From Botryllus schlosseri (Eukaryota), in NCBI GenBank assembly GCA_051294905.1, contig CM119371.1, positions 23,996,001 through 24,060,000 of the forward strand: a stretch of DNA of 64,000 bases, in the 5' to 3' direction. Below the pieces are notes generated by a model. The model saw only the letters and a program-made list of their open reading frames with translations, had not been told where the DNA came from and searched no databases. Each line of letters starts with the position of its first letter. The first letter of the stretch is position 1. The translations under genes were made by a program, and so were the position numbers. This document shows positions 3,301-39,400 of this stretch, piece by piece.

Positions 3301-3463
3301 GAATTTTGTTGCGCACTGCATGTCGCGAGTCTCGACCGATCGAATATGAAGAGATTAATTTCGAAAGATCTAAACGAGAATGGAATGGAATTGACTAGAC
3401 AACTTTTTTACGGATTGATTCTCAATGATAAAGTCACCAATAAAATGAGGAAGTTCCTGACGG
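3301..3463 (+). CDS. NLR winged-helix/HD2-region exon (EFCCALHVASLDRSNMKRLISKDLNENGMELTRQLFYGLILNDKVTNKMRKFLT)
   Basis: tccag|GAA acceptor, G|gtaag donor (phase 1); NLR-like (Q)EFxxAL and ELTRQLFYGL motifs. Confidence 0.75.
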
Positions 3464-12400: not shown

Positions 12401-15400
12401 AATAAATAACTGTTGTAACATTATATCGTATTGTATTATTGTATTGTACTGCAGCCATACTGTATTGTTGTATTGTAATAATTGTTGTAATAAATACCTG
12501 ATAGGGCCTGTTTGACCACAGCTCGCCATTCGTGTAATGGCGTCACGCCTCAGTGGGAGCTTTGAAATGGGTAGACAGCAAGGTTCAAACCTGATTGGAA
12601 TCGCTGGCCTTTTGTCTGATACATCAGGCGAGCGTGAGCAGCGATGATTTTCCGAGGTTAAGTGTGAGCCCAGGACCCCGATTCCATACACAGAACACCG
12701 ATTCCATGCGTGGGTTCAAAAAAGTAAGATACATCGTTATAACGTGCTGCAGAAGGTTTGAGACAGCTGTATAGCGAAATTGGTAAGAAAAAAGCATATT
12801 AACTGATGGGGTCAATTTGATCCTACCTTAGCCATCGTGTAACGATACCCACCTTAGCAGTATACGGTTAAATTCACGGCATTCGGCGCTAAATACTGTA
12901 AACTACTCTCGGCGGTAGCACGTTTATCTGGACACGGCAATTATAGGTCGACGCAGCAGTTAACTACCGTAAAATCACATGGGTGCGAGTACGAACATAA
13001 TTAATAACGATCTAAACCCTAATATCACTCTCTAGCACCACATACTTGAAAAAAAACGATTGCATACATTACATTTTGGGTTGAAATTAATTTTGGAATG
13101 TTTACCGGTCCGCCAGATATATTTCGAAAATTCACCAGTCTGCGAGGTGAAAAAGATCGAGAACCACTGCTTTGGAGCAGTGATTCCCAACCTTTTCCAC
13201 CTCGCGGACCGGTACAATTTCAAAAAAATATTTGGCGGACCGGTGGATTTTCAGAATTTGATATCAACCCGAAATATATGCTATATATTACTACCTATAA
13301 TAACATTTATTCTTATGCTACTTTCTTTATCTTTGTTTCATTATTCATAGTAGTTGATATCCCATGTTGTACTCCGCTTCCACTCGAACGCCATTACAAT
13401 GTCAATGCTATGAAACACTTTTTTTAGGTTGACCAAATGACGATTGAAGATAAATCAATGACGTATGAAAAAGTTGAAGCTTATTTAGGTATTCTGCGGC
13501 GCTGCAAATTCACGATGCTGGGTCTGGATAAATGTGATCTCACCGACAAAGATGTGGACATGATTTTACAATTTTGTCGCGATCACGGTATTAAGGTAAG
13601 GACTCTGCTTATAAGAAACTTTTCTATGCTAAAAGAGAAAATTCATGAATATATTAGATACATTTGTAAATCCGAAAGCTGAGTTAACCGACGTGCTAAA
13701 ATTTTCAAAATCGTTCAACTGATTTATTGATGTGGCGTATGGACTTGCTAACATCTGCTTCATTCGCCATCATATTCTTAAAAACCAAACTATCTAACAC
13801 CATATTCAATTAGATCAGGGGCGGGCAACTACTCACAGTCGGCGGGCCGGATATCGCAAAATTAGGTATTTGGCGGGCCGGATTGCCTAATCGATAAATT
13901 ATATTTGCCCATATACAAGGAATATATCGTATTAAATGGATGTATTTTAACGACAGCAATGTCACTTCAAAGCCATTTCTCGCATATAATGACGTAGAAA
14001 TTGTGGATTTGAAAATAGCATTGTTATACCGGCGTCGCCATGTCCGCTTCTGTCTGATAACACGCGGTACAATCCTTAATTAAGATTTCAAGGCGTTCGA
14101 TAAACCCGGAAACCCAAATTTACCAAGACATCATTTCATTAGGGTTGAGTACATCGTAAATGCGGATAATGCAAGTCTGCACGCTTCGACTTACGCGTAA
14201 GCTCTACTCTTGCACGCTGCGCACACACGTCCAGTCACTAAAATTTGACGTAGTAAGCAAGCAGTGGGAAATCTCTGCAGACTGGGGCCGCGGGCCACAT
14301 TATCCTGTAAGACGTAAAGCTGTCCGCCGGCCGGACAAAATCCCATTACGGGCCCGCGGGCCGTATATGTTGCCCTTCCTTTGAATTAGATAAAAGTAGT
14401 TGTAAGAATGTAATGTAGCCCCAGATTGCAAGGAATAGTGTGAGCCGGCTATGCCATATCATTGCTAACAATTACACTAAAAAGCAGCAATCGTCCCGTA
14501 ACTTCTATTCATTATGTCACAAGTCCATATCAAGAGACACAATCAAAAAAGGAAAATTGCTAAAACTATAATAAATAACGAAAATTGTAATTGTCACGTG
14601 CTAGCTTGACCATAGCAGATTACCACAATTTAAAGCTGCTACGTTGGGACTTGACCGTAGCAAATTTTGAAAAAAGCGTGAGCTACTTTGATCTTAGAAA
14701 TACTCTGACATTATTCGAGCGCAACCATCATTCCCGAAAAACCTGACAGTAGACATTTACATACACGTTTACTGCAACATAGCAATTTTTGTGCACCCGT
14801 AACCAGTAAAATTCTACGAAAAGCTTATTGCGCGTTATGCTGATCGTGCTTAACGTGTCTGTGACTCCAGTATTGGTTATCCAGAATTGAAAATGATTTT
14901 TTTTATCCAACAGGCCATTAAATTAGAGATGCATCACTTACAGTCCAGAACAGTGAACTGCAGGGTCACCGTTATCGTGGTATTCCGCCTTAAAAGGCTA
15001 CATTGTTAATGATGTGTCATTGATTTTGGAGGTGTGCCTGTTCCCCACCAGAAACCCCTTAATCCCCCACGAGAGGGACGTTATCCACCTGTTGAGAACC
15101 ATTGATCTGGAGCTAATTAGCAATTTAATTAGCCTCTTTAGATTCATCGTAAAAAATGGATAAGAATTAGCATTTGTTTTAGCAGAAGCCAACAACCTTT
15201 GAAAATTTGTTGAACGGTCTAAGCTGCAAAACAAATGAAAATACTGTCCAGTATTTCTTCGTTGTATCGAACGATGTTCTGCATCAATCATTCAATGATA
15301 ATTTCGGTTGTCTAAGAGATGAATGTCAGGAATTTGTGCGAGAGATCATGTGCTTTTGAGTAATCGTAACTGTGAAGTTGCAATGTTATATTGTTATTCA

Positions 15401-18400
15401 GCTTTCCGAATTGTTGATATCGGATGGGACCATGAAGTCAAATGTCTATTGTGAGGTCGCGAATATTGCCAGTATCACGGGTTGTTCGAGAGTATTTTTT
15501 GGAAACTGCGATCTGACGAGCCAGAAGTTGGAATGCTTTACGGCAACCTGCGTGCAAAATAAAAAATCGGCGAGTTGTGAAATTTGCCTGTTACAGCTGT
15601 TATTATATTGTTATTGTTATATTGTGATTTCCCAAATCAAAATGGAACTGTGACGTAGCAGGAATTTTGCGACTGCGTCGCGAACATTGTGATTGGCATT
15701 TGTGGTATTTCCCATGCACAATCACATCACTATTACCACCATTCGAATAAACAATATATGAAATGGACCATAGCCTCAACTTTATTTGTAAAGCAATCGT
15801 GTATTCTAAATATTCCTTATTTTATAGCTCTCTAGTCTGAAAATAGTGGATACTAAAATGCATGCTGAACTTTATCGTGAAATTGCTGTTACACTCAATG
15901 CTATCGGTGGCAACGAGATGTGGTTCCAAACCTGTGAATTGACGAGATCGAAACTTTCTGAATTCTACATCGGTTGTAAGGACAGCGATCTTACCGTAAG
16001 TTACTTTAGTCTAAAGAAAACGTAACGCGAGACAAGCTACATAAGTCGCGAGAAAACGACCGGGCGCACGCTACGAGAAAGATTAAAATACGTCCATGAG
16101 AATACCAAAAAGCTAGGACCCAAGAACAGTATGATATTCGTATCGTGGAGCACAAGGCCTAAAATACGATAAGCATCACTGTCTTGTGAACATTAATACT
16201 CCCGCGTTGCAGTGTAATAGTGCTGGTATAGTTAGTAATCCCTTTGCAGGCCAAGTCAATCCATTTTGACTGAGCATTGTGTCGCTCGCGCTCTACGGTA
16301 GGCTATTCTTTCCCTTGGCAACTATAATTTTTATGTTTGCTCATACATATTCCGATAAACTTCTGAACCAAATATTTTCTTTTGTATTTCGTTCGAAGAT
16401 TTTTATCATATCCGCCAAGTATTTCAGTCGACTCGAAATTAATGTCAGAAATTGCAGCGAGAAATTTAATGTTCTCCAGTAATCATTACTGAGAAGTTTC
16501 ATTATCATTCAGCTTTCCAAACTGTCGATATGGAACGGTGCGATGATGTCAGATGTCTACTGCGACGTCGCGGATATTATCAGTATAACACGATGTTCGA
16601 CAGTAGTTTTCGGAAACTGTGATTTGACGCAACAAAAGTTGGAATGTTTCACGGCAACATGCAAGAAAAAACAAATTTCTGTTAGTATGAATATTTGCTG
16701 AAAAATTGATTGGTACACAGATCAGGACATGAAAATGAAGCTCAGCAATATAATGATTTAGTGACGATAATATAAGTTTCTTTTGGGAAATTCATAGTTA
16801 ACCAATCGCATCGCCATGGATATTAATTATTCAATCATATTTTCCAGCAGTGGTGGCTCGTCCAATAGGGCAACTGGGGCATTGCCCCACCTAAAATTTT
16901 GTTCAATAATAAATATTTACCATTTATAGACGCACAGCATTCAAGATATACCGAAATCACAGCAAAACGTGCATACGTCTTGTGCTTTCGCTGGTAAATG
17001 CCCATCGCCCATACATAGCGAAGGCTTTGCGAAGAGCGAATTCTTTTCTGTGTTTTCGCTTTGTGAATGCCTAGTCGGGGCTTGCCCCGGTAGCACTCAT
17101 AACAAGCTTTCGCCGTCGGTTCTCTCAAAACCATGCAACAAGAAAGAAACGGTGACTTACTCTCTCCTATTCATAAAATTACTGAGAAAGTTGGGGCAAC
17201 CTTCCCTTGTTGCCCCCAAGGTGTGATGTAACAATCGTATCTATATCTGAACTCGGTTACCGTCATATGCGTTGAGTCGACCTTTGCTGGTATAGGTCGA
17301 TTTTGATGGTGTTTCGCACCATGATAATTCGTGAAACTTGGTATGTTATGTCGTGAAGGTGGTATTTAACACTGCTGCAAGTTTCAGGCTTGCTACCTAA
17401 AGATTAGAGTAGTAATTGTGTTTCCGAGTTTACTGTGTGCTGATCCATCATGTACAGCAAACAGATTTTACTCAAAAGGCAGCATTGGTCTCCATTGGTT
17501 TTGACTATAGAAATTAAACATGGAACGGCAACGACCGATTTTGCAGCTTCGTTCCGCTCCGCCGAGGCTGGAGTGGAGAGTGGTTTTGCGTAAGCGACTG
17601 TAGGATTTCTGGCAATCCAAATGCTATCTTCCCGAGCACAGAAATTATTGAATATGGTCTTGATCGAAAGCCACTGTTGCACCGATTCCGAAATTATAAA
17701 TTAAAATAATGATCAGGCACTGATCCACCTAGAATCCGTCCTCCAAGTCGAAATATCGGCATTGTTCGAACAATCGGAGAGTCGCAACGGGTCATTGTTA
17801 TGGTCATTGTGTTGCGGTTACCCGATTGTTCTGAACAATGCCGATATTTCAGACTTGGAGGACAGATTCTAGCTGGATCAGTGCCTGATCATTATTTTAA
17901 TTTATATTTTCGGAATCGGTGCAACAGTAGCTTTCGATCAAGACCAGATTCAATAATTTCTGGGCTCGGGAAGATAGTTTTTGAATTGCCAGAAATCCTA
18001 CAGTCGCTTACGCAAAACAATTCTCCTCTCCAGCCTCTGCGAAGCGGAACGAAGCTGCAAAATCGGTCGTTGCCGTTCCATGTTTAATTTCTATAGTTTT
18101 GACAATGTTCCATACCGAGATCGGTCTTGATATTTGATACGCTAAGTTAGTATCGACCGCTGTTACAAGTTTCAAGTTTTTCACTGAACTATGTGGGTGG
18201 TAATTTTGTTTCCTCAGTCGAGTGAGAGTCGACTCGTCATTTATCGCCAACAGATTTACGCCAATACCGCTGTTGGTCTCAATAGGCCTTTTGCAGGACT
18301 TCGATCACGTGACTAGGTCGCATAGCAACCACAAATTGGTTAGCAAGCTACTTTCTCGCGCACCTGCTTCAGTGCTAAATATCGCATATGGTACTGTTGA

Positions 18401-21400
18401 TTTCTGGTTGTAAACGTTTCGGAAATTTGTTGTAGAAGTCATCAGAGATTCACCTATGCTAGATGTCAATCATGTACAAAGCATTTAGAATGATATCGCC
18501 AGAATTACGCAGAAATCCATCGGTAACGTAGTCGTATTACGGTACTCAACTCTGATCATATGTACTTAAATTTATGCATTTGAAGTAAAGCGATTGGTTT
18601 ATATTCTGGTAAGAGTATTTGTTAGTTCAAGCAGAACTATTTGTCTGTTGTGGAGCCTGATTTTGGATGGAAGATATGACTGAAGCAGCCGGGACCCGCA
18701 AGGATCAGGATGTACTGTCTGCTGGTTTGGGTGCTGGCGTGCTGCTATAAAACCGCTGAACACATCGGAAGTATCTTTTGGGAGAACCTGCCATCAAGAC
18801 TAAGTAATGCAGTGCACTTTATTGTTGCCTTATACAATGCCGATCTTATTAGCACTACTTCACAACTGCGATTGAAGTGGATTTGGCAAATCACACGCGA
18901 TTTTGATAAATAGTTGATGTCACATATGTGCGCTATTTAGCGAACTAAGGGAAGTAACTATCAAATAACTCTTAGAGCAGCTCAAACGCAGTGACAAGAT
19001 CGGTCATCCTATACCCAGAGGTGGTCAACGTGGTCATTGTTGGGAACCGAGTACAAGTAATGCCTCAATTTATACTCCAGTACAAGTAGCAATAATTACT
19101 TCCAGGACATGTCCAAAGTACTTCAAGTGGAAGTAGAAATGAATTTCTGAAAAGTAGTCAAGAAATTCGTTACATGAAGTAGATTTGGTTGGGTCCCTTA
19201 GTTTTAGAAATTAATGCCACGTGACAACTGTAAACATTTCATGTTGCATCTTCTTGATCAACGCAAAAGGGTGATGACACCACAAATATGTGCAATTTTC
19301 AAAAATTAATTTAGTTACCGTGGTACTGGGGCTATTTTGCCCAGTTGTTATGACAACCTCACGCTTGAAGGGGATGCAATCATGCGTCAAAGCTACTTTC
19401 TAGTTGACAAAATCCACAAACTGACAAAAAAGTACTACCTAAAAAGTCTCAAGTAGAAGTGGAAGTAGCCTAAACTCATAATGACGCTAGTACTCAGGTA
19501 AAATAGTACTTCGTTGCTGACCCCCTCTGTGTATTGGTTCAACCAACTCAGAAACATCCTCTAAAGACGACGAACATTGTTTCTTTTGCATTGACTCCGT
19601 AATATTCTGAACTTATGTTATTCTTTGATTCATTGAATTTACAAATAAACTTGGAAAGAAGTGCAATTTATTAATTTTTGTGCATTCGATACCCAGAGCA
19701 TAAGAAATAGTTGAAGAAAAATGCATGTTAACCTTATCAAGTTCAATAACTGCCGAGACTCTTATGCCTATGTATTTTCATCTACCTCCAGAGCCACTTG
19801 TCTAGACAGATTCATAGCATCTGCGGAAGAGCGCTTGTCTTGTTGTACACAAATGAAATATCATTTTCGAAGCAGACATCAACATCGGGAAAGAAGTTCA
19901 GGACAGTTAGTCATTGGCCAGATCATCTGCTGACATTTTCTGTTGGCATGAAACCACGCTGCCTTCTACTGCATGACCGAATTTTATGTGGTGATAATAA
20001 TTGGCTCCAGGCTGAATTCTTGACGAGGGCATCATCAATTTCTTAGTTGCCTATGTTCGGCTCTCTTGGGATAATCCATCAGATCATTAATTCGTATACA
20101 TGTGGTATAGCCATGTCTTGAAACTCAAGATATTTGCACTGTGCCAAAGAGTCAAGTAATCCCATCCAGGCAATCAATCAAGTAATCCAGGCCTCGGGAC
20201 AGTTTGTTGCACCCTCAATTGGAGCTGATGATCATTTTTCTTCGGGTAGTGGCACTTGGCAGCATGACAGAATGATCAATAACTTGTAATATAGGTGTAC
20301 AGGTCTAAATATTTTGAATTGTTCAACTGAGAAGCCATACAATAGCATAGGATGTTTAATATATATATAGTATGTAGCACATGGCATGAATTCCTAACAC
20401 ATCAACGTACTGGCACTGGCAGTCATTGTCTCTAGGCTTAAAAATAGCAGTATCCTATATATATTGCAATCGATATCAATCATCAAAATGCTGCAATGAT
20501 TATCAACTACCACTACAATACAACTATAGTATAGTATACTTACTATCCACACCTAACTTAATGCTGCAATAAATATCACGCAGTCAATGTCCTGCAATGT
20601 CGAATTTTGTGTCATAAAATCATAGTTGACTACCATATAACGGCTACAATGTCGATCATTTTGACGCAAGGAGTTTACATAGTTCATGAATCGAAGACAT
20701 CAAACATATTTGAATCCTTGCGCATTTCCATGACACTTGCGTTTTATATAAAACGTTTACAGCCCTAAAACGATAATATACTGTATCCGAAATACGGCTA
20801 CGTTAACGACGGATTTCTGCGTAATTCTGACGATATCATTCTATATGCTTTGTACAGGATTGGCATCTAGCATAGGTGAATCTCTGATGGCTTCTACAAC
20901 AAATTTCCGAAATGTTTACAACCAGAAATCAACAGTACAATATGCGATATTTAGCACTGAAGCAGGTGCGCGAGAAAGTAGCTTGCTAACCAATTTGTGG
21001 TTGCTATGCGACCTAGTCACGTGATCGAAGTCCTGCAAAAGGCCTATTGATTCATACCTAGATCTGTCATGAGCTTTTGCGCGGTATGTCTTGATTTTAT
21101 TATGTCACGCCTTGCCAATTTTCAACGTTGACACTCAATGATTGAGGCAGTTATTTCGTTTTCGAGGTCGATTATGGCAGAGATGTGCGCTGATCTGATA
21201 CTTACCTACATCATTGCGGATTTCACGCAAAAGCCGGTGTCTATCTGTTCTAATTTAGTCTGCGTTCCATAACGTGATCGGTGATGATATATCACGATGA
21301 TCACCCAAAACAGCTTACTAAGATTCTCGGTTTGCATTCAAGTATTCACTAAAGTTTATGTTCTCCAATGTTCATTTCACTGTGAAATTGTGGCTTTCAA

Positions 21401-24400
21401 ACCATGTGCTTACAATCCCCTGTCAAATGTGATGGCTATTTCATTTGCGATGTCAGTTAACAGCTGATCACTCGATCAGCGTATTCCTCATTCTATTTTA
21501 TTCAAAGTTCGGTGTTCGTCTTTATTTTTTGATTTTGACAGTTTAACATGCTGGAATGGGTCATGAGATTGCGTATGCTACTTCTCGATGATGTCATGTA
21601 AAAGAGTAATAAGTTTACGGCTTTCACTGACTCATTCATTTAGTAATATATTTTCTAACGGAGATTTCGCAGCAGGCAGTAAGACAGTAAGCCATATATG
21701 CTGTGCCACAGTCTCCAGTTTCAAGGCCAAAATCTCCAACATGTTGTTCAGAGACCGACTTTCCAAGGATGCTATCCTTAGTTCTTTAAAGACCATTCAA
21801 AAGTTGCTTCGGATTCAATGTGACAGGCCCAATCTATGTGATAACAATTGCGTATGTGTCCGAACTCGTTGACCTTCCAGTTAGGCATACGCAATCTCCC
21901 GAGTGCTAGTCATTTATGCAGATAATTAGTCAGGTCAAATGCGAACATGAATCGTGTTGAATCTTTGCTCCGTACACCGTTTAAGCAGTCGCCATTAGAG
22001 CAAAAATTAGAGGTAAAGCGACTAGGTCCTTATACGCCTAGAAACTGTACATTGATCCAATCGTACGCCGGGTGCCACCGCTTTGGTTGCCTATCACCTG
22101 GTCGTAACACACCAGGAGCGTGTACGAAACACTTTCGGGTGGGCTTAGAAACACTAGGACCAATCGGTTTGCGTAATCACTACCACGAAATCAAAACGCA
22201 TGCTACTAAAGATGCGCTGATGATCGATTCGTGGCATAGGGACGATTCTTTGTACATTTTGTAAAATGACCGGTTGAATAAAAAAAAAGAATAAAACACT
22301 TTTATCCACACTTCAAGTCGCGGCTCATCGGCAAATCTCTCGCGGCACCTACGTTAAAATTACTGTTGTCGGAAATTCATGTGACCATCATAAAGTTACT
22401 TTTTCAAATTGGAAAACGTCATTCTGACTTAATGTTGATAAAATATCGCTTGTAGCCCTTGCCCCACCACCCGATATTCTCACGAGCCGCCACTGTTTCC
22501 TAACCGTTCGAAGACACAAGGGAATAAATCGACTTTGAGCTACATATATTGCAAAGCATTAGGTTAATGTATTTAATTCTATTTTGAAGCTCTCAACAGT
22601 TGAAGGAACGATGTGGAAATGTATGCCGAAGGTTACAATGAAATAGCTAATACACTAAAGTATATCGGTTGATAAAAGATGTGCTTCAACAATTGAGAAT
22701 TTACGGTGTAGTAGTCCAATATATCAGATTCCTAACTATAAACGAGTTTAGTATTTGTGGTGTTTTATGCATCCACCAGGTGTCTATCTTTGCGTCATTT
22801 CCTTTCGTGATTATTTCGTCTTGAAATCCTTGCAAGTGCTCAAGATTCGCTAAAGGTCTTCAATCACTGGGAAAAGACGCTCAACAATTTCATCAATGCA
22901 GTTGAGGCTTCGACGACGCAGGCTCCTTCTAACTCCGACGAAAACCCTCCCGCCTTGGTTCTCGATAAATTGGCGATCCTTACAGGGTATGTATCTCCTG
23001 ACGTCTATGCATTATTCGAACATCTGGACACCTTCACAGCGGCCATTGACGTGCTCATGTCCCTGTATCGAAAGAAGAAGAATGTAATTTATGCTAGGCA
23101 TCTGGCATCTGCTGGCCATTGCAAAACAAGACCCGGGTAAATCGATCACCGAGTTCTCACAGGAATTGCTCATGCTTGCACGTGATTGTTCGTTTGACGC
23201 TGTAACTGCTGACAAGCACAGACAAGAAGCGGTACGAGATTCGTTAATTACTGGTATTCAATCATCGGCCATTCGTCTGCGCTTACTCGAACATGACGAT
23301 TTGACTCTTGAAAAGGCGATAAAGATAGCTGAGTCTCTTCAACAGGCGCAAAAGTTTAGTTCCTATGAGCCGCAGAGTCAAACGTGTTCTGAATGTCAAC
23401 AGCGATCAATCCGCCAATGGTTCCAATTTATCAGCGTTCAAGAGCGATGTGCCTGCCGCGAATACATTGAAGAAGAAGTGAATTTTCTGCGGAGAAATTC
23501 ACGAAAGAACACGGAAATCCTGTCCCGCGAAAGATGCTTCAAGCTTTCATTGTGGCGTGCGAGGACACGATGCGAAGTATGCAGATTGCGTATCAGAGGA
23601 GAACCTGCTGCCTCGTTGAACTCGTTAGTCTCTGGCTCGGTACTTGCTGGAATATCCGAATCTCCTCTGTATTCTTGCCTCGACGTCTCCGTTGCGCAAT
23701 ACAACGTGGAAGCTTTGATAGATTCCGGTGCTTATGAATGCTATATCAGTGAATCTTTATCGAAATACCTCGGCCTTCGCCTGTTAGGTGGCAAATACCC
23801 CATCACACTCGCAGAGAAAAATTCCGTAATAACTGTTCTCGGGTGCATTGAAGCTTCACTCGAGATACCGGGGTGTAATTACGGCAAAGTCAAATTCAGA
23901 GTCGTTAAAGATCTTATTGCTGATGTTGTGCGAAGTATATTTGAAAGATGAAAACGGAAAATGCCATAACGGCAACGCAACAACAACAAAACGACCTCTC
24001 TCTCCACGGGTCACACGAGCTCTGTGTGCCAACATTCACGACCATCAAACAACACCGTTCGAACCAATCAACGAGCAATCAATCAGTCGCTCGCGCTGTG
24101 ATCAGCGTCCGAGATAACAGTCAGTTAACAAAATCGCACATTCCCCCGTGATGAATATCACTCTTCATCACCATTCATCATCGTCTCTCATCTCTTCTCC
24201 CCATCTCTCTATGCCTCTCATCTCTTCTCTCCATCTCTCTCCGCCTCTCATCTCTTCTCTCAATCTTATGAATTGGCAACGGCGCTCATCTCAGTACCAT
24301 CCAACCCATGATCGGTAACGAGGGCACGTGCTATCGATAGCACCTCAGTCAATTTTACCTGCTCCGCCTTTGGTGTCGCCCTTATCTGAGCAGACACACG

Positions 24401-27400
24401 TTTCGGCAACCCCAAGACGAAAGATAATTTCAACAGCCGTTCGTCACCGTTTTGACAGATACCCGCCAGCTTTGCTAATCGTTTCAAGTCGGCAAGGAAA
24501 ACGTCGACCGATTCCTCTTCATTCAACACCCTCGTCTTGAATTCCCCATACGCCGAAAGCTGATCACAGGCGAAGGCACGCAACAGAGCCTCTTCGATTC
24601 GATGTTCGTCACTCTTTTCAGTCTCCGGTAACTGGTCGTACACGGCAAATGCGTCACCGTCCAGAACCATTGGGGTTACGATTGTTGTTGTTGCTATATC
24701 ACCCGTTCCATCATACCGCGTCAACACCTCCGTCACCATGAAACTGGCCATTATCGTTGATGGGACGCGATAGCTTGTGTGAAGTATATTTGAAAGATGA
24801 AAACGGAAAATGCCATAACGGCAACGCAACAACAACAAAACGCCCTCTCTCCACGGGTCACACGAGCTCTGTGTGCCAATATTCACGACCATCAAACAAC
24901 ACCATTCGAACCAATCAACGATCAATCAATCAGTCGCACGCGCTGTGATCAGCGTCCGAGATAACAGTCAGTTAACAAAATCGCACACTGGGATTGGACT
25001 TCATGAAGCAGCATGAGAAAGTAGTATTTGAATTTGGGGACCATCGGAGGATCTCGTCATTTCTAATGCTTCACATTGCGCCGTAGCAGCTGCGAAAGTA
25101 TTTGCACCTCCTCAAATTTTCAAATTCGTCGACCCCGAAGTGCGACCCGTGGCTGTCAGATCAAGAAATTATAGTTCAGATGACCGCAAATTCATTGCGA
25201 GTGAGTTATCGAAGCTGCTGTGCGATGGTGTGGTAGAACACTCCGTGTCTCCCTGGCGAACTCAAGTCTTGGTAACTAAAGATTTTCGGCACAAGAAGAG
25301 GTTGGTAATCCATTATTCACAAACAATCAATAGGTTTACTCCTCTTGATGCGTACCCGTTGCCAAAAATAGAGAATATAGTCAATGAAGTGGCGAAAGGG
25401 ATGGTATACAGCACTATTGATCTAAAGTCCGCTTACCACCAGGTGCTACTATCTGTATCCGATAGGCCATATACTGCTTTTGAAGCTGATGGATCATTGT
25501 ATCAATTTTTCCGTTTGCCTTTCGGAATAACCAATGGTGTAGCTGCGTTTCAGAGTTTCATTGACAATTTCATTGCTGAACACGACCTAAAGGTACCGTT
25601 GCTTATCTTGATAACGTCACGATTTACGGAGAAAATCAAAAAGAGCATGATGAAAGGCTCCATCCAGGCTTTCGTGTTGGCTGCGACGAATTGCGAATTA
25701 ACACTCAATCGTGATAAATGTCTGTTCTCTATTTCAAAACTTTCGTTACTTGGACATTTGATATCACATAATCAAATTCAGCCAGATCCTGAACATCTGA
25801 AACCATTACTTGAAATGCCAGTTCCTAACGATAATCGCAGTTTGAAACGCTATGGGAATGTTGGCATACTATTCAAAGTGGATTCCCTCTTTCTCCAGTA
25901 AAATCAAACCAACATGTCAAAATTGCGAATTTCCGTTGATAGGTATTCAGCTTGAAGCCATCAGTAAACTGAAAGGTGACTTATTACGAGCCTGTCCAAG
26001 TTGTATTTATGACGATGAACCTTTCCAAGTGGAATGTGATGCGTCAGATCTTGCGATCGGAGCTATCTTAAGCCAGCGGAGCAGACCTGTCGCTTTCATG
26101 TCCCGAACATTGTCTAAAAGCGAGATGAAATATCCAGCTGTAGAGAAAGAGGCGCTGGCAATTATAGAATCTGTCAGAAAATTGGGATATCTTTTGATTA
26201 GAAACTAGTTTCGCTTAATCACCGACCAGAAAGCGCTTTCATTTATATTTCGAAAAAGTCACCCGAGCAAAATCAAGAACAGCATGTTATCTATTTGGAA
26301 ATTAGAACTCAGCTCGTTCAAGTATGAAATTTTTCATCGCCCCGGTGAGGAACATGTGGGGGCAGATGCTCTTTCTCGGCTGTGTTCCATTTCATCGTCG
26401 TCTGGAATGTCGTTACGGCAGATTCATGAAGCTTTGAGTCACCCTGGAGTCCGCAGGATTCATCACTTTGTTCGTGCGAAAAACCTGCCTTTTTCCATGG
26501 AGGATGTCAAAAACATCTGTTCCAATTGCTCTTTCTGCTCCGAATGTAAACCGCGTTTCTTCAAATCCAACCAAGTGAATCATCTAGTCCATGGGTGGGC
26601 AAACTACGGCCCGCGGGCCGCATGCGGCCCTCCACACCGTTTCGTGCGGCCCGCAAGAGTCTAAAGAAACTTATTAAAAATATTGATAAAATGCGGACTA
26701 AAAATCGAATTAATGGAGGGAATTGATTTAAACTTTTTCTTAGTACATTTCACCATGATAAGTATATGGAAGTGGTTCTCAAAACTGGGTGATGCACCAT
26801 CCTATAGGTGGCATGAAATCATTTGAAGGGAGGCGCGACGCTGAGCTCAACTAAAAATTTCGCGCTAGGCACGATTAACAGCCCATTCTTTATTATTGCT
26901 CTGTATTTAGTCTGAATTTGATATTTAAAAATCTCTCAACCACAGTCGTCACCTTCCATGCCATCAAACTATCTGAGGTTTGCTAACAGCCTGGTTGCGT
27001 TTCGTGATATGACGACAAGGGCGGCGAGAAATTTATTACCATCATAAGGGGGCAGGGCGTGTCTTAAAAAGTATGAGAACCACTATTCTAAGGTAAATAC
27101 TTCATACATCATTTTTATATTTAATTTCTTTCGTGACAACCCGATCTAAGGTCCACGCAGTCAGAAAGGTTTCAACTACTAAAGATCACAGAAATTCTAA
27201 ACGAGATCGACATAATTCGGATCACGAGTGGGATTTCAGATTGGCCACTCCAATTTTAATTATTTCCGTGATGTGCTTATAAAAAACGATTCGCGCGTGT
27301 CTTAGATAGACTCGTTCTCTGTATGCGCAAAATCAAGCTATTAATATTTTATCTACACATAGTAGAAGCGTGTTTGAACCTAACATGATTACGATGGTGT

Positions 27401-30400
27401 CAGCATTGTGTGTCCTGGAACTGAACCAAAAGTGGAATTAGTAAATCTATGAACAGATCGCTGCTCACAGATTTAAATTTCAATCTAATTCATCTCTATA
27501 GTTTTGAAAAATTGGTTATTTAGGTCGACCAGCCTATGAAATCCATCACCACTGTTTCTGATCTGATATCATCAAATCAATGGTTGGATTGTTTTAAATA
27601 AGCATATATATTATCTCCATGTCCTCACTATATAATCAAATACCAATATTGCGTTTTGGTTTATAATCTCAATTTTATATAGTGCGGCCCGCGAATGGAT
27701 TCAGATGTTGAATGCGGCCCGCCAGCTTAAAAGTTTGCCCACCCCTGATCTAGTCAAAGCCACGAGACCCTGGGAGCGTATAAGCATTGATTTCAAAGTT
27801 CCAGTCTCAGAGCCCAAACGTTTCATACTCGTCATAATCGACGAGTATAGTCGATTTCCATTCGCCTATGCGTGTCGTGACATGACTTCTGCGACTGTTA
27901 TCAAGTGCCTCTCTTCATTGTTTTCCCTTGTTGGACTCCCCGAATACGTCCACAGTGATCGAGGTACATCATTTCTATCGAAAGACGTAACGGTATTTCT
28001 GACTGGTAAAGGTGTTGCGTCAAGCAAATCAACACCCTATCATCCAACTGGCAATGCTCAATGCGAACGTTTGAATCAAACCCTCTGGAAAGCAATTAAA
28101 CTCCGTTTAGCAACTCAAAAATTACCTGAACGTATTTGGGAACAAGTCCTTCCTGATGCTTTGCATCCGATAAGATCGTTACTATGCACCTCTACTATAA
28201 CTGTTGTCCTCATGACAGATTTTTCAGCTTTGAACAGAGATCCATGTTAGGTGTATCGATACCTGATTGGCTCCTGGGCGGTGGCACTGTGCTGCTACGG
28301 AACTTCGTTCACAACAAGAGTGATCCTGAAGTCGTCAGAGTAGAACTTCTAGATGCTATAACACCAAATATGCTTTGATTCGTCACAGGAACGGGACGGA
28401 ATCAACGGTATCGGTCAAGGACCTGGCCCCTTGTCCACCTAAAGAGGACACGAATACGTCTGATTTCTCCTCTGACGAACCTGTGGTCGAGATGAGCCCT
28501 GGAGAATTCAATGATCAGAATCGTTCAGCTCGGGCGCCCTCAGATCAGCATTCTAGTTCTCCAGCCGCTGTTCGAAAGGACTGTTTCGATACGTCTATCG
28601 GTGGATATGACAACGATTCTCATATATCTGCTAAAGAGCCACCTGTCAAGAGGTCGTCAAGAATAAGACGTACGCCGGACTGGTACGGTGATCGCAGAAC
28701 TTGACTACTTTACGTAGGGTTAATTCTTTAGGCCGGGGAGATTGTGGTGTTTTATGCATCCACTAGGTGTCTATCTTTGCGTCATTTCCTTTCCTGATTA
28801 TTTCGTCTGTTTGTCCTTCAGTTAGTTGATCATTCTGGTTTAAGGCGTTTCGAGAGTAGCATGTATTTCCTGATTTACTTGCATTCAAACGTTTCTATTC
28901 TTTGTAGCTTATTCTACAATTTTAGTCGATAAATACCTTGAAAACCGTGTGTATATCAAGAGGGTTTTTTCTCGAAAGGTCACGACAGTATTCAATGATA
29001 GGCAAGCTTGTTCTTAATGTGCAGAAAGCAATCATCTCGCTTCCACATTACGAGGTTGAAATTGCATTATCGGGATCTGATGGAAACGTAATTTGAAAAA
29101 AAAACAGTAATGGCTCAAATACTTCGAGATGAGAGCAGAATAAATCGACAAAATGCCAAGATATGATGCCGCCACGTATAGGCTAATGGACATTGTCAAA
29201 ACTTGAATCGACACTGGAACTATGTCGACGCGAGTATTTCTTCTCTCACAAAGCATCAACTATTCTCAAATGTATTAGTTACATTTATCTGATCTAGATA
29301 TCAGCTTCTATTGTGCGACAACCTCTCTATAGTTCTGCTTCACATGATTAATTTATTTTCCGTGTCAATTCAACTTGAGGATGCTCTACTAATATCATCG
29401 TGAGCTATTCCCGACATAATATAACTCGATGAACGCAATGTCAATCTCAGTGGCGAGGCGACACTATGTAAAGCACTGGGACTGTACAACCGGATGAACT
29501 GGCCAATTAGTTCAAACTACTTGGTTTCTGATAAGAACGACCATATTCGACTATATTATACGACAAACTCTCGGATTGGCACATTGCGCTCGTTAGTATT
29601 AATTGGTGTTTACCCGCCGTGTGTCGCAAAGAGAATCACAGATTACGAGTAAACTGCAACTCGAGCTGGAATGGAAGAAATGTCAACATGGAATCCCATC
29701 AATTGGACAATCTATTTATTCCAACGCCAGTTAAAACCTAATTACTTAGTACGGTAATCCGTATTGAACTCAGAAGTATGTGCAACATTGATAACACATT
29801 TGTCTGAGCTTCCCGTCAATACTTTCTTTAATTTCATTGTCCTTGCGACGCAACGTGTTCCGGGACCTATATAATTCTTCGTACAAGGTGTTGTTATTAC
29901 TATATCATGTGATAAGACATATCGATCGGTTCTAATTATTAACCAGAAGTGCACTAAACTTTGAAAGACACCATTACCAGCATGTTTACCGATATAGCTG
30001 CTTGTGAATCGAAGATAAGAAGCATGCTAGAACGTGAACTAGAATGGGTATTCGATTTTGCATCGCTAGCCAAAACAGGAAGTGCTTTAGAAATTTGTTT
30101 TTTAATAATGTTGGGCAACATCGGTGATGATTCCATGCTGAATGCAGTCTTAGGTTTTCAGTGTAGTCGACCATTCAGTAAGGCGTCATAACAATATGAA
30201 TGAAGCAGAAAGTTCAAATGTAACGTTTATGCCAGTTGCAAATCACTTTTAACGATAACACATGGTCAAAACAATTTTTGCTGGTTATTTTTACCTAATT
30301 TGGGGCGCTGAATCCGAATCTGGCGTTACTTTTGAGATATTATGTATATAACCTTTTCTTATCTTTTCGGTTTACTGAAGTAGATTTTGCCTACTTGCAT

Positions 30401-33400
30401 TATTTACTGAAGTGGTTATGTTTTCATACTACCTCCACTTCTACTTGTACAGTATTTTTGATGAACTACATACAACTGTAATTTGGATTTTGAAACGTAA
30501 AACTAGTGATGGAATAATATTGCACCACTATCACGAGTTTAGTGGTCATTGCAGTAGCGTGGTGAAGTAGCCCGGAATCAAGGTAACTGGCTGGGGTATA
30601 TTTACCAATATCCAACCTATTCGTAACGTTATAATGGCCACTTTCATTATCCCCGGAAGTTGCATCTTGAGATTTCGTATATATCCACCTCAGAGCAACT
30701 GCGAAAACTATGCGATCCCGACCAAATAATCGTTTGACACATTCTGACTTAGTACTTTTCAAACCTTTCATCAATGTGTTCTCTCTGAAGTAGCTTTGTC
30801 ATATCTTAGAAATTACCACTTGTACTTGAAATTGGGAAAATATGTAAGGGGTTATTTGTTGTTCTACTTAAGTACCAACGCTGATCTGTTCGACCACTTC
30901 TGATATATAGTAATATATTACAACAATTCCTAAACCGCACTGAAAATCCATCAGTTTAGTAATTTAACCATGCAAAACACAACTGACCGATTACAGTATC
31001 GATCAGATTTCGTAACTGTCGATATGGGATAGTACGACGTCGGATATCTATAGACATCTCCCTAGTACAGAGGTCTCAAACATGCGGCCCCCGACGGTAT
31101 TTTGGAATTTCCAGTATTCAACAATAAATTCAAGGGCCATATATCTTTTTTAGATATAAGAACTTGAAGTTCACGCTTAAAATACTATAAAAATCACTGA
31201 AATCTCAACAAACTTCTTCATCACAGCACTTTTAAAAGCTACCATGTGGTAGAAGATAAGCTATTACGTCACATTTCTACTTCAAGATGATAAAACATCA
31301 CCAGTTCATGATTCGTGACAGAAAATTATGTTTGGTGCGACCTTTTCGTAAAATTACTCGATTTCGGATTGACTGGGTGTTTAATAAAAACGAACCCAGT
31401 TGAGTCGGGTCAAATGATGAAATCAGAGAAGGACTTGCGACTTAGAACGGTAATCCTACGGACGCAACAATCTATGAAACTGGCATGGGGAGTAATATTT
31501 TATCAAAAGTTAGTAGCTTGCGTTGCGTAGGGTATATAGCTATCTAATCAGGTCAGTATGACAACCATTGGTATTATGTGACCTCCATGACGTATAGTTA
31601 GTTACATGCTGAGTGTTGCCTGTTTTCTTTATCCATGTTATCATCGGTGGCGAGTAAGGTAAGGCTCTACAGCTGTACCACCAATGAATTCTTCGCCAAT
31701 TGGACATTTCTATTCCAGGGGTTCTTAACCAGGGTTCGTAGACCCCATCGGGGCAGAAGCACCACATCAGGGTGTACGAGTTGCATTGTGGAATTAGGCC
31801 TATATGCTGTGTAATGTTTTCTTGACCAATTTATTCAACTGGAAAATAGTCTTCACGCTACGCATGATTTGATGTGAATGGGCTTTCCAATTTTAATATA
31901 GGTATCATCAGAATTTGTGCTGAAAATGAACACATAATTTCAATGACAAAGTAAATGACGACAGGACCTGTGGGGTATATGAAGAATAAATCAGCAAAAT
32001 CGTGGACATTATGCTTATTCCTTTCTCGGCATTTTTGACACTGGAAGGAAGAGATAATCAGAATTGGAATCATTTTGCGCTGTCTACGTCAGTATCTCTG
32101 CAAAGAAACACATCTACTATTTTGAAACTTGACTCGCATATCAGTTTTCTTTGTCGGGCAGCCTCCTTAAATTCTCGTTGGTGACGTACCGTTTGAACCG
32201 TGTGGCGTTTCATACATTTTCCATTCATTTTGAATCCGAGGAAGTTTTGCGAATAACATCATAAGATACTCTCTGTGCGTATACTGGCAGTTTTGGTACG
32301 CTCGTGGAATAGACTTTGATCTCCGATATTGCTACAGCTTTCGGCGATTTTGCTGCAAGCAAATTCGCCTTGTAACCTCATTGCCAATTATTATATATAT
32401 TTAAATACATATGTTTATGGCCTGGTCGTTGTTGTTTGTTGTATTCATGGTTTTCGACTACTATGGTCATTTACACCAGACCGTTATTCCTTAATTTTGA
32501 TTCCCACTTTTGGGCTTTTTATAAGACACCGCTTACGCGTGAGAGAACAGGATGAAGGGATGCATGCGTTTGTCATTTATCAGAATGTTCTAAAAATAGT
32601 AGCGTTAGGGGAAAAATTTTCAAAATTGTTCTCAAAGTCAAATTTTTTTGCCGTCTGCATTTCGTTTGTTTCGTAGATTTTGCACTATCGGTGAACTTAT
32701 CATTTGATATTTTACAGCTTGTAGCCTACTTCATAAGCCTGCCGTTGTAAACGGTCAATTGTCTTCTCATTGGGAATCATAAACGGTCAAATAAAACAAA
32801 TAGATAGACATGGTGTTATGGTCAACGTACCGCAATATCCTAACTGAAGAAAGACTTCCTAGGCATTGCGTCATTCTTATATTAAGAAGCGCATGATGAA
32901 AAATTGTCATGTAGACAACATTATGAGAATGAAGCAACACGGAGTGTCACCAGTAAGTGTACGAACAACTTGAGCGATGTCAGCTGCTGCTGTTGAACGT
33001 TCTTTCTCCATTCTTGACAAGATTCTTAGTAAGGACATGCACTTTCTACCCAGGAATGTAGAAAAGTATCTCTCGTTGTGCTAGAACAAATTTTAATTCG
33101 GTGTTTTCACGCAAGACTCGGCCCTTATCAGACTAGAAATTGTCCATTGATCTAATCGTACGCGGGAGAAAAGTGCAATATTACCTTTCCCCAACGTATT
33201 TCGATAAAAATGAATGGCTGACGTATAAGCGAGGATAAGGATGCCTTGTTATCCACTTTTACACTGCTGGTGCCAGGGGCAGTGTTCCTAGTTCGACCGA
33301 AATTCGGTGTCGTGATCTGAAGCATGTGGTCTACTGCAAACGGCGTCTCGATATTTCCTGATGTTCGACATTGCTCGGCTCGAGTTGACTTGTTTATATT

Positions 33401-36400
33401 CCAATACATCTTTTACCACTATAGTGAGCTTTTAAAATTCCTAAGTTGAAAAATCGATTTATGTCAACTTTGCAGCACTACTTAGGCTCCGGGCGTTAAA
33501 TGTGCTCACGTTTCTCAACGCTCTAATTCTGGGTATTCCAGATTTCAATGGAGTCATGCTTGAACATTTTGAAACTATGGAATTACGCCGGGCGCAATAG
33601 GCCTACCGATACGAACTTTAAAATAAGCACTTATAAATTACTGTAGGCTACTTAATATTTTCTTTCGAATGATTTGAAATGCGTAAGCTTTGTCAAACAT
33701 GTCTGATGTCTATACCCCATACAAACGGGTGTGACCACCACGAAGTCACATTTTAACATCGGAATACACTATTGTGACGTCATTTGGACAATTAAAGTCG
33801 CGTAGACTACTTGCCCCACCACCCTATATTGTCACGAGCCGCCACTGATAGTAAGACAATGGTCACTGGATTGACTATTACCGTAATTTTCCATGTATAA
33901 TGCGCAAAATTTTACCGATTTTTTGCCCTAAAATAGGGGGTGCGTATTATACATGGGTACAGCAAGCCTTGAAAAAAAAATCCCACAATCAAAAACTTGA
34001 AATCACACCTTTATTCATGTTTGTTTAAATCGCGCATCACCTCTAGCCATTGGGCATCGTAATACGTGTTATAGAGTGTAACGCGCTGCCAAATAGAGAA
34101 GCGTGTTGCCAATTAACGAAAAGCGTGTTTCTAATTAACGAGTGTCGTCTGCAAAGCACGCGATCTGTTGCTGAGTTGGTTTGCCGTTTGTACGCGAGCG
34201 AAATTAGGTCGCTGATTGCTACAAGCGTGCGCGGCAATCCTTGTTGACTCATCGCGTCAACGACAGGCCTTAACAATCGCATACACAAGAGGCCATGTGC
34301 ACGAGATATAATCGCTTGCGTAATCAGTCGCATCTCCAATGGGACTGGTGCGCCGACATAACCGTTGACCTGAGCAATCGCATCTGTAATTGTAATAGGC
34401 CACGTGCGTAAGATGACGTGTGTCGCTTGCCTGAGCTATCGCGTCGCCGACCTCACAGGCTTTGGCTACTATCTACTCTCGTTTAGAGACAATGCCGTGA
34501 ATTGTATTATGATTAGCGATCATCATGTCATGATTGTTCGACAGTGACATCTCAAAACAGAACAACATTTAATACTAAACCGCAACAATTCATGTACTCA
34601 TGTACTGAGAATGCAGGGTGCGTATTATACATGGGTACAGGCTTTTTCCCAGAATATACACGTCATTTTAAGGGTGCGTACTATACATGGGGGCGCACTA
34701 TATTCGGAAAATTACGGTATTCAATATGACCCAATCATTTACGGAAGTTCCGAGTGCATTTTTGTGATAAAATTACTCGGCCTAATATATAATTCTTAAA
34801 CGTAAGCCGTAAATGCAATCACATTGCTACGTATATTGGTAATTCATGTTTTGCGACCTTTCTGAAATGGGGAAGCATAGAAACAGTCATCTACTCAACA
34901 GAAGTATTGTAAAGTAATCCGTAATGGTAAATAATGCTTATTTTGTAGCTCACAACTCTGTGTATATTCGATGCAAAAATGCCTGCTGAAACTTTTCGTG
35001 AAATCGCAATGACACTCAAGACCACATGTTGCAAAAAGATACAGTTCCAAAACTGCGAATTGACAACAAGGAAGCTCTCTGAATTCTTCATTGGATGTAA
35101 AGACCACCATCTATCTGTAAGTTGAAAGAATGTTCCTGAAAGGCGAATTCTTTAGAGTGGGTGTTAACATCAGGGCGATCGTGATCAGTCGGTAGATTGC
35201 AAGATCCAATCGAGAGCATCACAATACAAACCAAATGGCTTATTGGGTGTAAGGGCAATATTGACATGAATTTGTCATTACTCGTGGGATTGACAGACCA
35301 CGGAGATTTGTGCATCTGTGAAGTAAAAAGCGACTTACTACTGACTTGTGATCGCCCCTGGTCTGAATCGTAATAAAATAATCAAAGCTACTTCAATATA
35401 TCACAGTGGTAGTTGAAAATTGGCTTGGATTCGCTCTGAATATGCATCAATCAATGATCCAGTTTGGACAATTCATGATATATATTACTTCCTATATAAA
35501 GTCGGATATAATCGTAAATTGATTGAAAGTTGAGTTTTGGGGCATGAGAACACAAATCAACAAATTACCGGATATGACGATTTCTAGAGTTCGCTATTTC
35601 GTCGACATATTTGGTGCTAAAATAGGCACATATTCGACACTGCAAACATGATCAAAATTTGCGTAAGCCTATCATGCGAGTTGGTTATCTTCATCTAGCC
35701 TACTCTATATAGCAGGGGTGGGCAATTATTTACGCAGCTGACTAAATCAAAAGCAGGAAATACGTTGGCGGGCCGAGTCAAGAATTTAAATGATAATCTG
35801 CGGCGTATTAGAATTACATTGTTCACACATGCTGCTCAGGATATGTATTGGTATTAGGCCATGAGAAAGTGATGGGTAATCAGCATCATGATTCAGAACA
35901 ACGGTAACATCATAGTTTTAAACTATATTTTATTCCACAGACACGTTTTTCTGGTGAGACATTCAAATTACTTTAGGATATCACAATTCCTGTCTGGGAC
36001 GCCGCCTCCGAAGTAGTGTGTAGCTTGGTGAAATAGCCTTGTTGTTGATGGAAACTAGCAGTGTTTCCCAAAATCGCCCTCCCCTAGCCGAGTGTCTATC
36101 TTCATGTTTTTCGTCAACAAACAGACTTAACATATACTCCACTGGGGCCTGCTCGCTACTGACTAAGATGATGGGTTCACCCCTGACTCCAGTATACCAA
36201 TATTCAGTACTCCAAATCTTTTTTGGCAGTCGGCCCGCACCATCGATTGCTGACATGCCCGGACGTTCATCGCTTATGGGTGATGATGACTGGTTAAGCA
36301 CGGACACTGGACAGTGATCGACTTGTGTTACGAATTAGGGATTTGGAAATGTATTGCGTAACAATTTGAGCGAGATGCGTGCTTTAGATCGCTGCCATAT

Positions 36401-39400
36401 AGGGCTAAGAAGGATTACATCTTAATTTTGTGTGGTGCATGTGTATCTGTGCACGAGAAAAAAGAGACAGGTCCGAATTAATTAAAGTCCCCAGTGAATA
36501 TATTTGTTAAGAAAAAAACAGGAAAATTGCTAATTCGGTAGCTAGTGTTAGCTTTGATCATTTTCTACTATTTTCACGTGCTGAAAATATCAGAAGTAAA
36601 CTATGTGAAAAAGTATGTAGTGTACGGCAAACGGTTTCCAGAATGGGATTTGATTATTATCGAATAAAACGGCGTTCGTTACCTTGGTTTTGAAGAACGC
36701 AATGTTCAGATAGTATCTGCAGTCAATATTTACGGACCATGATTGTATTCGTATTGCTAAATCTACAGTCCCATATAAACCGGAACTCATATTTGATTAT
36801 TTCACAACGTTCAATCGTTAATATTCTAACTGTAGACATTCTATTAGCGATCATTATATTCTATTCGCCATATCGTCAATAGTATTTCTTTTATTGAAAG
36901 TTTATGCAAGCATGTGGTATTACATATATGTGTGCAATATGTCGACAATGAAAATAAAAAATATATAAATTTATTGAGTAGATTGATATCGATAACGGTT
37001 ACAGTAACAACTATATTTGAAAGAATGCTAACTAACTTTTATTACTTTGACGCTTTGTTATCTAGAATGGCTGATTGATTATATACCTGACTGTCAATTG
37101 AATTGGGTACCTAAAATGTATTTGAAAAACGAACGGTTGGTTCGAATTCACATCCATATGTTGAGCATGATCAATTAATCATATGTGACTGTGTGGTGCC
37201 TTTAGATGGTTGTGCAAATTGTCAATATAATTTAGAAATTATTGACTTATTCTTTATTCTGGTCTGCATTTATACGAATTCATTGATGCTTAGTTAGCAT
37301 ACAATTCACCATATCATTGGATATGTCGAAAGTATATTATATCAATGCGAGTTAGAATAATATAATATAACCAAATCAAAATCACTTTTGAGTATGATAC
37401 ACAATAGTTGTTTCATACAGCTCTCGAGACTGAACATCATGGATAGTACAATGCTTCCAGACGCTTATTACGACGTGGCAAATATCGTCAAAATCACCAA
37501 ATGTACTATTCTGTATTTCCGATATTGCGATTTGTCAATACAGAAATTGGAAAGCTTGGGTAAGGGTTGCAAGGAAAGTCGCATCTTGGTAAGTTGATAA
37601 TATTAAGAAACCTAATTTAGACAAAATTTTGCGTTCAAGTTTAAGAAACAAGAATTTAAATCGAAGCAGCGAAGAATGTAGAGTATATTGTCTCAAAGTG
37701 ACATGTCCATGTGTGACATGTCCAGTTTTCAAATTTTGAAGGTCCATTTTTAAAACTTTTTAAAGAAACGGGTAGAGAGCCACTTTTCAAATTTCATTGA
37801 TGCCTTTAGCCGTAAGAATGCAATATCGTGACCAAATAGACCACACTTTTACTAACCATTACTTGTTTACGTCAGTACAACTATAGAGTATGACTGGAGT
37901 GACGACTCGATTGTTCTCCCATTGTTAGCCGGCAGAATGGTCACGGTCAGATGGCTGCACCCAAAACATGATCGCTCAGCGCTTGTTTCTATGGCGTCCA
38001 AGGCGATTCGTCATGTATTTCTTGAAGCTGCGTCGGATTTAGTTGGACAGTTCAACATTTAGGTAGCGGTGGCGAGTGGTTATGACTAGTGAATATTACC
38101 GTGTAGCCTATGTTACATTTCTCACGAGATTGATGTGATATTGTGGCTTTGATCCTTTATAGAGTTTGCTACGTATATAAATATAATGACAGAAGGTATA
38201 TAGAATATCTGGTTCGTGTACATTGGCTATTGTGAGATGAATTCATGGAAAGGACGACTGAAGAGTACTACAAAGTGAACAAGTGGAAAGATCTCGAACT
38301 ATATCGATATGCAGTTCGCAATAGCTTTGATTGAAAATATATCCTATATTAACTGCAGAAATTCGAGTATGAATATAACAAATAATATCGCAACAGTCTT
38401 GTAGTCTTGTGTGCCTGTCCGATAACCGAAGAAACTTGAGTATGACTAGAACCAGAGCCTTGTGTAATGTCAATGTTCTGCTTGATCTCGGTTCACAATA
38501 GTCAGAGCTTACTCCTTGGAAGTATGCAAAATCGCACTTGAATGGAACTCGTTGTCATTGCCAAAAATACCCTGGAATTCGCTTGGAAGACCTCTGCCAG
38601 TGACATTAGTAGACAGCCAATGCACCACGTCAAGGTTTCGACAAACGCATTTTTTTCCCTTTTTTAGGTAGGGAATCTCAATGTGGATAGGCAGCATTTG
38701 CCACAGAGAGAAAAAACTACCATACTAACACTACCAGAAACTACATTCGCTTCATTTGCTGCATCTTTTCTTGGTCATGGATTCCTAGCCGACTTTTGTC
38801 CAAGGATTTTGATCAACATAGGCTTATGTTGTATTGGCACCTTTCCCTCTCTTTATAGCCTTACGCTGGCATAAACGCTGGCCTAAGGCATTTACTGAGT
38901 AACTGACTTGGCCAATAACTGGATTCCTGCTGTATCTCATCGAAGACCGCTGTTAACTTTTAACATTCGTGAATAATATTAATGAATGTCAACTGAAGTT
39001 ACCCAAGATCCAAATGCTGCTTCCAGAACATCTTGTGTTAGGACTCTGGAAGATACTGATTCCATAACACCATTCAAAAGCCGAATTGCTAGCTTGCCCA
39101 TATTCTTGGTCCATATTTGTATAGAATAGGGTTGCCATACGTCCGGAATTTCCCGGACATGTCCGGAATTTCACTGTTCAAACTGGCGTCCGGGAGGAAT
39201 TTCTAAAATATGCCAAATGTCCGGAATTTTGAAGACTTGACGTAGGCTCATAATTTTTTCGTAAATCAGCATAAAAACAATATTTTTTGGGAATAGGCTA
39301 TTTATGCTGATGCATGATATTTTTTTTTCACGCTGCGCGCGATTTACTATCACATTTATTGATTTTAATATGGAGACTACTACCATCGCAAAATGTGCAA

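Follow-up and report, generated by a model that had tools for sequence, protein, structure and literature searches.

Two classes of two-repeat exons, duplicated in units of varying size, in a tandem NACHT-LRR gene cluster of Botryllus schlosseri

The window analysed here is a stretch of 64,000 nucleotides of the ascidian Botryllus schlosseri (GenBank assembly GCA_051294905.1, contig CM119371.1, positions 23,996,001 to 24,060,000, forward strand), in which a series of exons encodes the leucine-rich repeat (LRR) domain of a NACHT-LRR (NLR) gene that belongs to a tandem set of eight paralogues. We consider it probable that this family gains and loses whole, frame-symmetric exons of two LRRs each, likely by unequal recombination in introns and in blocks of one to six, a pair of one class A and one class B exon being a common block; the A/B alternation of the window copy would then likely reflect an old (A-B)n start followed by deletion, and the B exons likely bear diversifying ligand contacts. 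An earlier note, made from the letters of the window alone, had proposed growth only by two-exon duplications, resulting in an obligate super-repeat of 112 amino acids.

All seven LRR pieces that the earlier note had placed in the window are found at the positions and in the order it gave. Five of them are open exons of 168 nt, flanked by AG and in phase 0-0 (15402, 15828, 16513, 34949 and 37421), and of its two dead exons, that at 22590 is a decayed B, with best local scores of 91 against B and 32 against A, and that at 31007 is what remains of an A, a stump 60 nt long that scores 75 against A and 24 against B. One assignment has changed: the exon at 37421, taken for an ordinary A, falls in a terminal class, T, its identity being 84-96% with the final exons of four paralogues and 45% with the window's own A exons. 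Ahead of the A/B series lies an additional open two-LRR exon of the same 168-nt length, of class C. The series in full is:

13428 to 13595, plus strand: first two-LRR exon, of class C, with a single copy per gene (genome match, tree)
15402 to 15569, plus strand: LRR exon A1 (open frame, GC donor)
15828 to 15995, plus strand: LRR exon B1 (predicted beta-alpha-beta-alpha)
16513 to 16680, plus strand: LRR exon A2 (tree, open frame)
22590 to 22755, plus strand: dead B exon with a frameshift and stops and lacking a donor (also present, in this decayed form, in paralogues G2 and G7)
31007 to 31066, plus strand: A-exon stump of A3 type, as in G3 exon 6 and G5 exon 3 (sequence comparison)
34949 to 35116, plus strand: LRR exon B6, which in paralogues closes a series of B exons duplicated singly (tree)
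37421 to 37588, plus strand: two-LRR exon of the terminal class T, A-like and single in each gene (identity, tree)

The paralogues were surveyed over the full C-to-T span of the eight genes on this contig (C1), most of an array on C7 (interrupted by three gaps) and a single array on each of C3 and C15, giving 157 exon-length matches, 154 of them with a GT donor. In a DNA tree of 135 exons, the 22 from C15 being left out, the two classes on which the earlier note had staked its reading do separate: A together with the terminal exons forms one clade and B another (ultrafast bootstrap 100 and 92), internal A exons form a clade of their own (97), and T, holding each gene's last exon, is its sister. 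The exon orders, with stop-containing exons omitted and one TG-acceptor and one AT-donor exon counted in, are:

G1: CAABBBBT
G2: CABA
G3: CABABABABBBT
Window gene: CABABT
G5: ABABABBBABBBT
G6: CABB(AB)8ABBT
G7: CABAABABBBT
G8: CABBABBABBABT

Strict alternation is therefore true of the window copy but not of the family, since it occurs only in the two shortest genes of the eight and six of the eight have B-B runs. The family pattern is instead a rule of 'A then B', observed in 28 of the 30 junctions that lead from an A to an A or a B. With the young copies in G6 collapsed, two A-A junctions are seen versus 7.8 in shuffles (P 0.0016) and 16 B-B junctions versus 19.7 (P 0.055), P values which are optimistic because the paralogues share ancestry.

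Duplication units, as read from intron homology, comprise 1, 2, 3, 4 and 6 exons across the family. G6, whose exons have an identity of 0.81 at lag 2 versus 0.35 at lag 1, contains a tandem array of A+B with a 5.65-kb unit (98.4-99.6% identity), in which A and B stay paired across a 2.1-kb intron. In G5 an A-B-B-B unit is duplicated, in G7 a block equivalent to window 15190-22598 (A1-B1-A2) is repeated, with later losses, and single B exons are duplicated in G1, G3, G5 and G7, while on C7 A-B-B units of 2.5 kb are nested inside six-exon units of 6.3-6.6 kb. An obligate super-repeat with one fixed period does not hold family-wide, periods of 1, 2, 3, 4 and 6 being found, that of 3 in G7, G8 and C7 and that of 4 in G5.

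The introns add a measure of age. Of the 24 from A to B, 15 are 139-276 nt long, in contrast to those from B to A, all 16 of which exceed 500 nt, and those from B to B, all 16 of which exceed 2 kb. The short introns are homologous between non-equivalent A-B pairs (z is 14 inside G3 and 9 when the window intron is compared with that at G3 exon 6), and the duplication of the A+B pair is therefore old; against the 140-nt intron class the window A-to-B intron gives z of about 0-2. Neighbour distances are correlated from A to the next B (r 0.75) and from B to the next A (r 0.39). The exon pair with its intron is thus, as the earlier note supposed, a genuine duplication unit, old by its intron homology and still active by the young G6 array, but neither a fixed unit nor an origin of the window order from two-exon duplications alone is supported. 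A recent duplication of A1 to A2 was rejected, as the two are 77% identical and share only ~100 nt of intron, and no recent internal duplication is therefore present in the window gene.

What the window gene does carry, between its A stump and B6, is a deletion scar. In each of the five paralogues compared, the intron that follows B4 is matched by the segment 31933-32270, and the sequence of 32274-32575 changes over from pre-B5 to post-B5 intron; given these orphan intron pieces, and given that the nearest paralogues, G1 and G7 (93-94% identical in NACHT), retain A4-B4-B5, these three exons were deleted from the window gene. Relative to G3 and G5, B3 is missing as well, which brings the loss at this join to three to four exons. 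The neat alternation of the window is likely in part this scar, and the ancestor of the subfamily was likely A1 B1 A2 A4 B4 B5 B6 T, which does not alternate. Loss of the dead B and the dead A as one pair, which would have kept the alternation, was rejected, as G1 and G7 run A2-A or keep A4-B4-B5. The inserts concerned and the scar are:

22756 to 28987, plus strand: broken long terminal repeat (LTR) retrotransposon (protease, reverse transcriptase and integrase matches; 5-bp target duplication; absent at this site in G2 and G7)
31067 to 31932, no strand assigned: multi-copy transposon-like insert cutting the A stump, its 3' edge being the first deletion junction
31933 to 32575, plus strand: orphan intron pieces which flank B4 and B5 in paralogues; deletion scar

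The retrotransposon was also considered, and rejected, as the cause of the loss of the dead B, since in G2 and G7 the exon has decayed although the insertion is absent; the element arrived later than the decay. Nested within it, at 23926-24987, is a second element with direct repeats of its own, in opposite orientation.

One LRR exon, modelled with 75 family members, is predicted to form two strand-helix units in succession (strand-helix-strand-helix; predicted local distance difference test 93.8), with strands at residues 3-7 and 30-34. A wider structure comparison of this model gave ribonuclease inhibitor (RI) as the best match, with a middling Z of 5.2 and a root-mean-square deviation of 2.1 over 53 residues, and a profile match to the same protein was obtained at 57-residue spacing (E 0.0012); Foldseek with the 56-residue model gave nothing at E 0.001. 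A modelled eight-module relative from Styela forms a regular solenoid matching NLRP2, RI and NLRP3 structures at E 1e-9. Taken together, the exon model, the fold matches and the Styela solenoid predict that each exon folds as two RI-type LRRs.

The two exon classes differ in the selection acting on the strands of this predicted fold. Seven strand positions (3, 5, 7, 30, 32, 34 and 35) were fixed from the model before any output was seen, and the ratio of amino-acid-changing to silent substitution rates (dN/dS) was estimated from the distinct exons of C1, C7 and C3, 63 of class B and 37 of class A. At these codons, predicted to lie on the concave face, dN/dS is 3.69 in B and 1.03 in A, compared with 0.22 and 0.33 in the core and 0.52 and 0.51 at the remaining positions, and none of 25 random seven-site sets rises above 1.0 in either class. 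In likelihood tests of the strand codons, B differs from 1 with P about 3e-6 and A from B with P 0.0017. The value for B is robust (3.4 in C1 only, 4.4 in C7 and C3 only, 2.6-5.1 on leave-one-out), and that for A ranges from 0.7 to 1.7 over the same kinds of subset. Furthermore, 21 disjoint close pairs of B exons differ at strand codons by 46 amino-acid changes versus 3 silent ones, and 12 pairs of A exons by 18 versus 7. The comparison of dN/dS at variable strand positions, proposed in the earlier note, thus returns a diversifying excess in B and none in A, and to judge from these sequences it is in the B class only that selection favours variation on the predicted binding face.

Growth by two-exon duplications and nothing else, in an obligate 112-aa super-repeat, agrees with the live window order A B A B T, with the (AB)4 that opens G3 and with the high lag-2 identity and the young A+B array of G6. 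It is refuted as a strict rule, barring mutually exclusive splicing of B-B and A-A neighbours that would make the mRNAs alternate, by the 16 B-B and two A-A junctions of open exons in the eight genes, by the periods of 3 and 4 in G7, G8, C7 and G5 and, in the window gene itself, by the divergence of A1 from A2 (77%) and the deletion scar, and even as a general account we hold it to be highly improbable; the super-repeat is one rhythm among several, and its strictness in the window is partly accidental. A real possibility, although one that we are inclined to doubt, is that the linkage of A and B reflects nothing more than the small recombination target offered by the intron that separates them, the classes themselves being functionally meaningless. 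The contrast of short A-to-B with long B-to-A and B-to-B introns argues for this, and the independent two-module alternations of Styela, described below, suggest a generic outcome; the difference in strand dN/dS between A and B is left unexplained, however, and the G6 array holds its pairs together across 2.1 kb. Where exon order is concerned, such geometry can be reconciled with block-wise gain and loss; short A-to-B introns may by themselves hold pairs together.

It seems to us unlikely that the order is maintained by structure, with A a scaffold which needs a C-terminal B neighbour for stacking, B the variable partner, and selection purging A-A while tolerating B-B. The 28 of 30 junctions obeying 'A then B', helix residues fixed by class at module positions 19, 22 and 49 and the dN/dS asymmetry would all suit such a grammar, but A-A neighbours with intact splice sites exist in G1, in G7 and on C7, and A-to-B introns below 300 nt in 15 of 24 pairs would alone make breakpoints between A and B rare. 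Somewhat unlikely, too, is the reading of the window copy as a decaying pseudogene whose exon order is a mere remnant: two dead exons, the GT-to-GC donor change, a heavy transposon load, the absence of RNA reads on the exons tested and a stop in exon E2 of the close paralogue G2 point that way, against which the NACHT exon and all 12 modelled exons are open, with AG acceptors and GT in 10 of 11 donors.

Several points weigh against block-wise gain and loss of functional exons with diversifying B contacts. In all four bulk RNA runs with the same species label (6-13% of each, 93% likeness), no read fell on eight exons within 3200-16800, and only repeats were covered. The cut-off of the Pfam LRR models was reached by none of 75 exons. 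The donor of A1 is GCGAGT (window 15570), the sole GC among the 157 matches, where equivalent exons at three paralogous positions have GT; with this derived donor the exon may be skipped, which would give a product of order C-B-A-B-T. Distances from B to the next B are correlated as well (r 0.76), the shortage of A-A junctions and the distance correlations arise from events that, through the shared ancestry of paralogues, are not independent, and part of the ~99% identical arrays could be an assembly artefact. As for selection, the concave facing of the seven positions follows from the LRR strand pattern rather than from model coordinates, exchange between exons can inflate dN/dS, and kappa was only coarsely gridded in the likelihood tests.

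The NACHT exon of the host gene, whose putative role is in immune sensing, lies at C1:23994677-23995813 (L020:8677-9813), ending ~190 bases 5' of the window. It matches Pfam PF05729 above cut-off (E 1.6e-11), NOD2_WH below cut-off (E 0.016) and the NOD2 structure 5irm (E 0.003), and is one of 38 NACHT matches genome-wide, eight of which, the window gene included, stand in tandem on C1, each of the eight units having a single NACHT exon and a single C exon. In a splice-site model, 12 window exons (E1-E4, C, A1, B1, A2, B6, T, cap and last) continue the NACHT exon as a single open frame of 649 codons. Apart from the LRR series they are:

3301 to 3463, plus strand: exon E1, extending the winged-helix/helical region after the NACHT exon
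4091 to 4410, plus strand: exon E2, helical domain and LRR lead-in (6 paralogous matches)
4521 to 4600, plus strand: exon E3
5249 to 5393, plus strand: exon E4
46021 to 46191, plus strand: capping exon, 171 nt
55604 to 55666, plus strand: final coding exon with stop codon

For an N-terminal effector domain, two upstream frames gave no Pfam match; a short Asn/Val-rich exon 5' of NACHT (L020:5047-5153), common to four genes of the cluster, likewise matches no Pfam entry. Walker B reads DGLDQ in all seven NACHT exons seen and in Styela XP_039248824.1. An acidic residue is usual at the position held here by Gln, and its replacement may slow ATP hydrolysis. In the paralogue G2 (C1:23.587-23.625 Mb), besides the stop in E2, the acceptor of A1 is TG, the T exon is lacking and the cap exon has diverged to 65% identity; G2 is possibly two genes fused by deletion.

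Elsewhere in the genome, C15:13.238-13.268 Mb holds a compact paralogue whose LRR exons, ~22 in number, are older and diverse and belong to neither the A nor the B clade. Near the LRR exon arrays at C7:28.46-28.66 Mb, C3:25.36 Mb and C11:4.4-5.0 Mb the NACHT search gave no match, and these may be NACHT-less, or have NACHT exons that are divergent or were missed. Within the window, minus-strand frames at 7373-10072, without Pfam match, resemble the remnant of a non-LTR retrotransposon; repeat-derived RNA reads lie over 8200-9100, in the flank of these frames. A palindromic element of 595 nt is present in two copies (17504-18098 and 41991-42585, 94% alike), and the intron after T holds, at 37880-41988, an element whose inverted ends measure 261 nt and which contains a C2H2 finger frame.

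Word-indexed protein searches with the E2 exon, the NACHT exon and an LRR alignment, confined to longer proteins, returned nothing at E 0.001. A full HMMER search returned 92 proteins, and 8 of the 10 best matches looked up are uncharacterised models of Styela clava. Two such models, XP_039248824.1 (2508 aa, with NACHT) and XP_077976009.1 (1383 aa), share the 56-aa module of the window gene and show long two-module alternation with local breaks (lag-2 identity 0.62 and 0.70 versus lag-1 0.44 and 0.51); the residue after the Walker B Asp is Gln or Arg in the two NACHT-bearing models read. The Styela modules differ in that they group separately from A, B, C and T, as a clade on the opposite side of the midpoint root (FastTree 0.97), and as each gene moreover has its own pair, the alternation, known there from protein models, is of independent origin. 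A wider proposal, that ascidian NLRs follow a two-class grammar in which A exons are spacers needing B next and B exons a diversifying surface, recombination varying an AB, ABB or ABBB rhythm and with it the spacing and chemistry of the binding face, and that such rhythms arose at least three times in the lineage, is conjectural and, in our judgement, quite unlikely.

Exon-modular LRRs and multi-domain duplications are already known, and a literature search by titles and abstract openings, supplements being outside its scope, gave nothing on exon classes of ascidian NLRs. The different selection on the predicted concave codons of A and B is new here and, with the 'A then B' rule, is what most merits attention. 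What the cluster contributes is a natural series whose introns record unit size (one to six exons), breakpoints and age, and in which two interleaved classes are under different selection; it allows stacking constraint to be tested against intron geometry as the keeper of higher-order solenoid repeats, and bears on how an invertebrate chordate varies its intracellular sensors.

As far as the available parts of the reports describe them, four known systems invite comparison. Human NLRPs have frame-preserving LRR exons of one length with two alternating LRRs each (Hoss et al. 2019, PMC6642158), and the window family resembles NLRP and RI of vertebrates in its NACHT-LRR architecture, its uniform frame-keeping two-LRR exons and its RI-type fold. 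The exons are of 168 nt (28+28 aa, phase 0-0) rather than the 171 nt (28+29) of NLRPs, and it is the window family that has a second level of A/B classes, from 4 to 22 exons among neighbours and no Pfam LRR match. Nebulin has a duplication block of four exons and seven domains (Bjorklund et al. 2006, PMC1553488); here, too, several domains and exons are duplicated together in units of variable size within a family, but each exon border is also a module border, and a single gene cluster combines units of one to six exons. Like zebrafish NLR-B30.2 genes, in which the last LRR exon is fixed and the internal number variable (Howe et al. 2016, PMC4852459), the window family has a fixed terminal LRR exon and a variable internal count, and it shares exon-wise LRR shuffling and positive selection on the concave face with the ROCO genes of brown algae (PMC11378527). 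From the latter two systems, in the available accounts of which no such feature is described, the window family is set apart by two interleaved exon classes under different selection.

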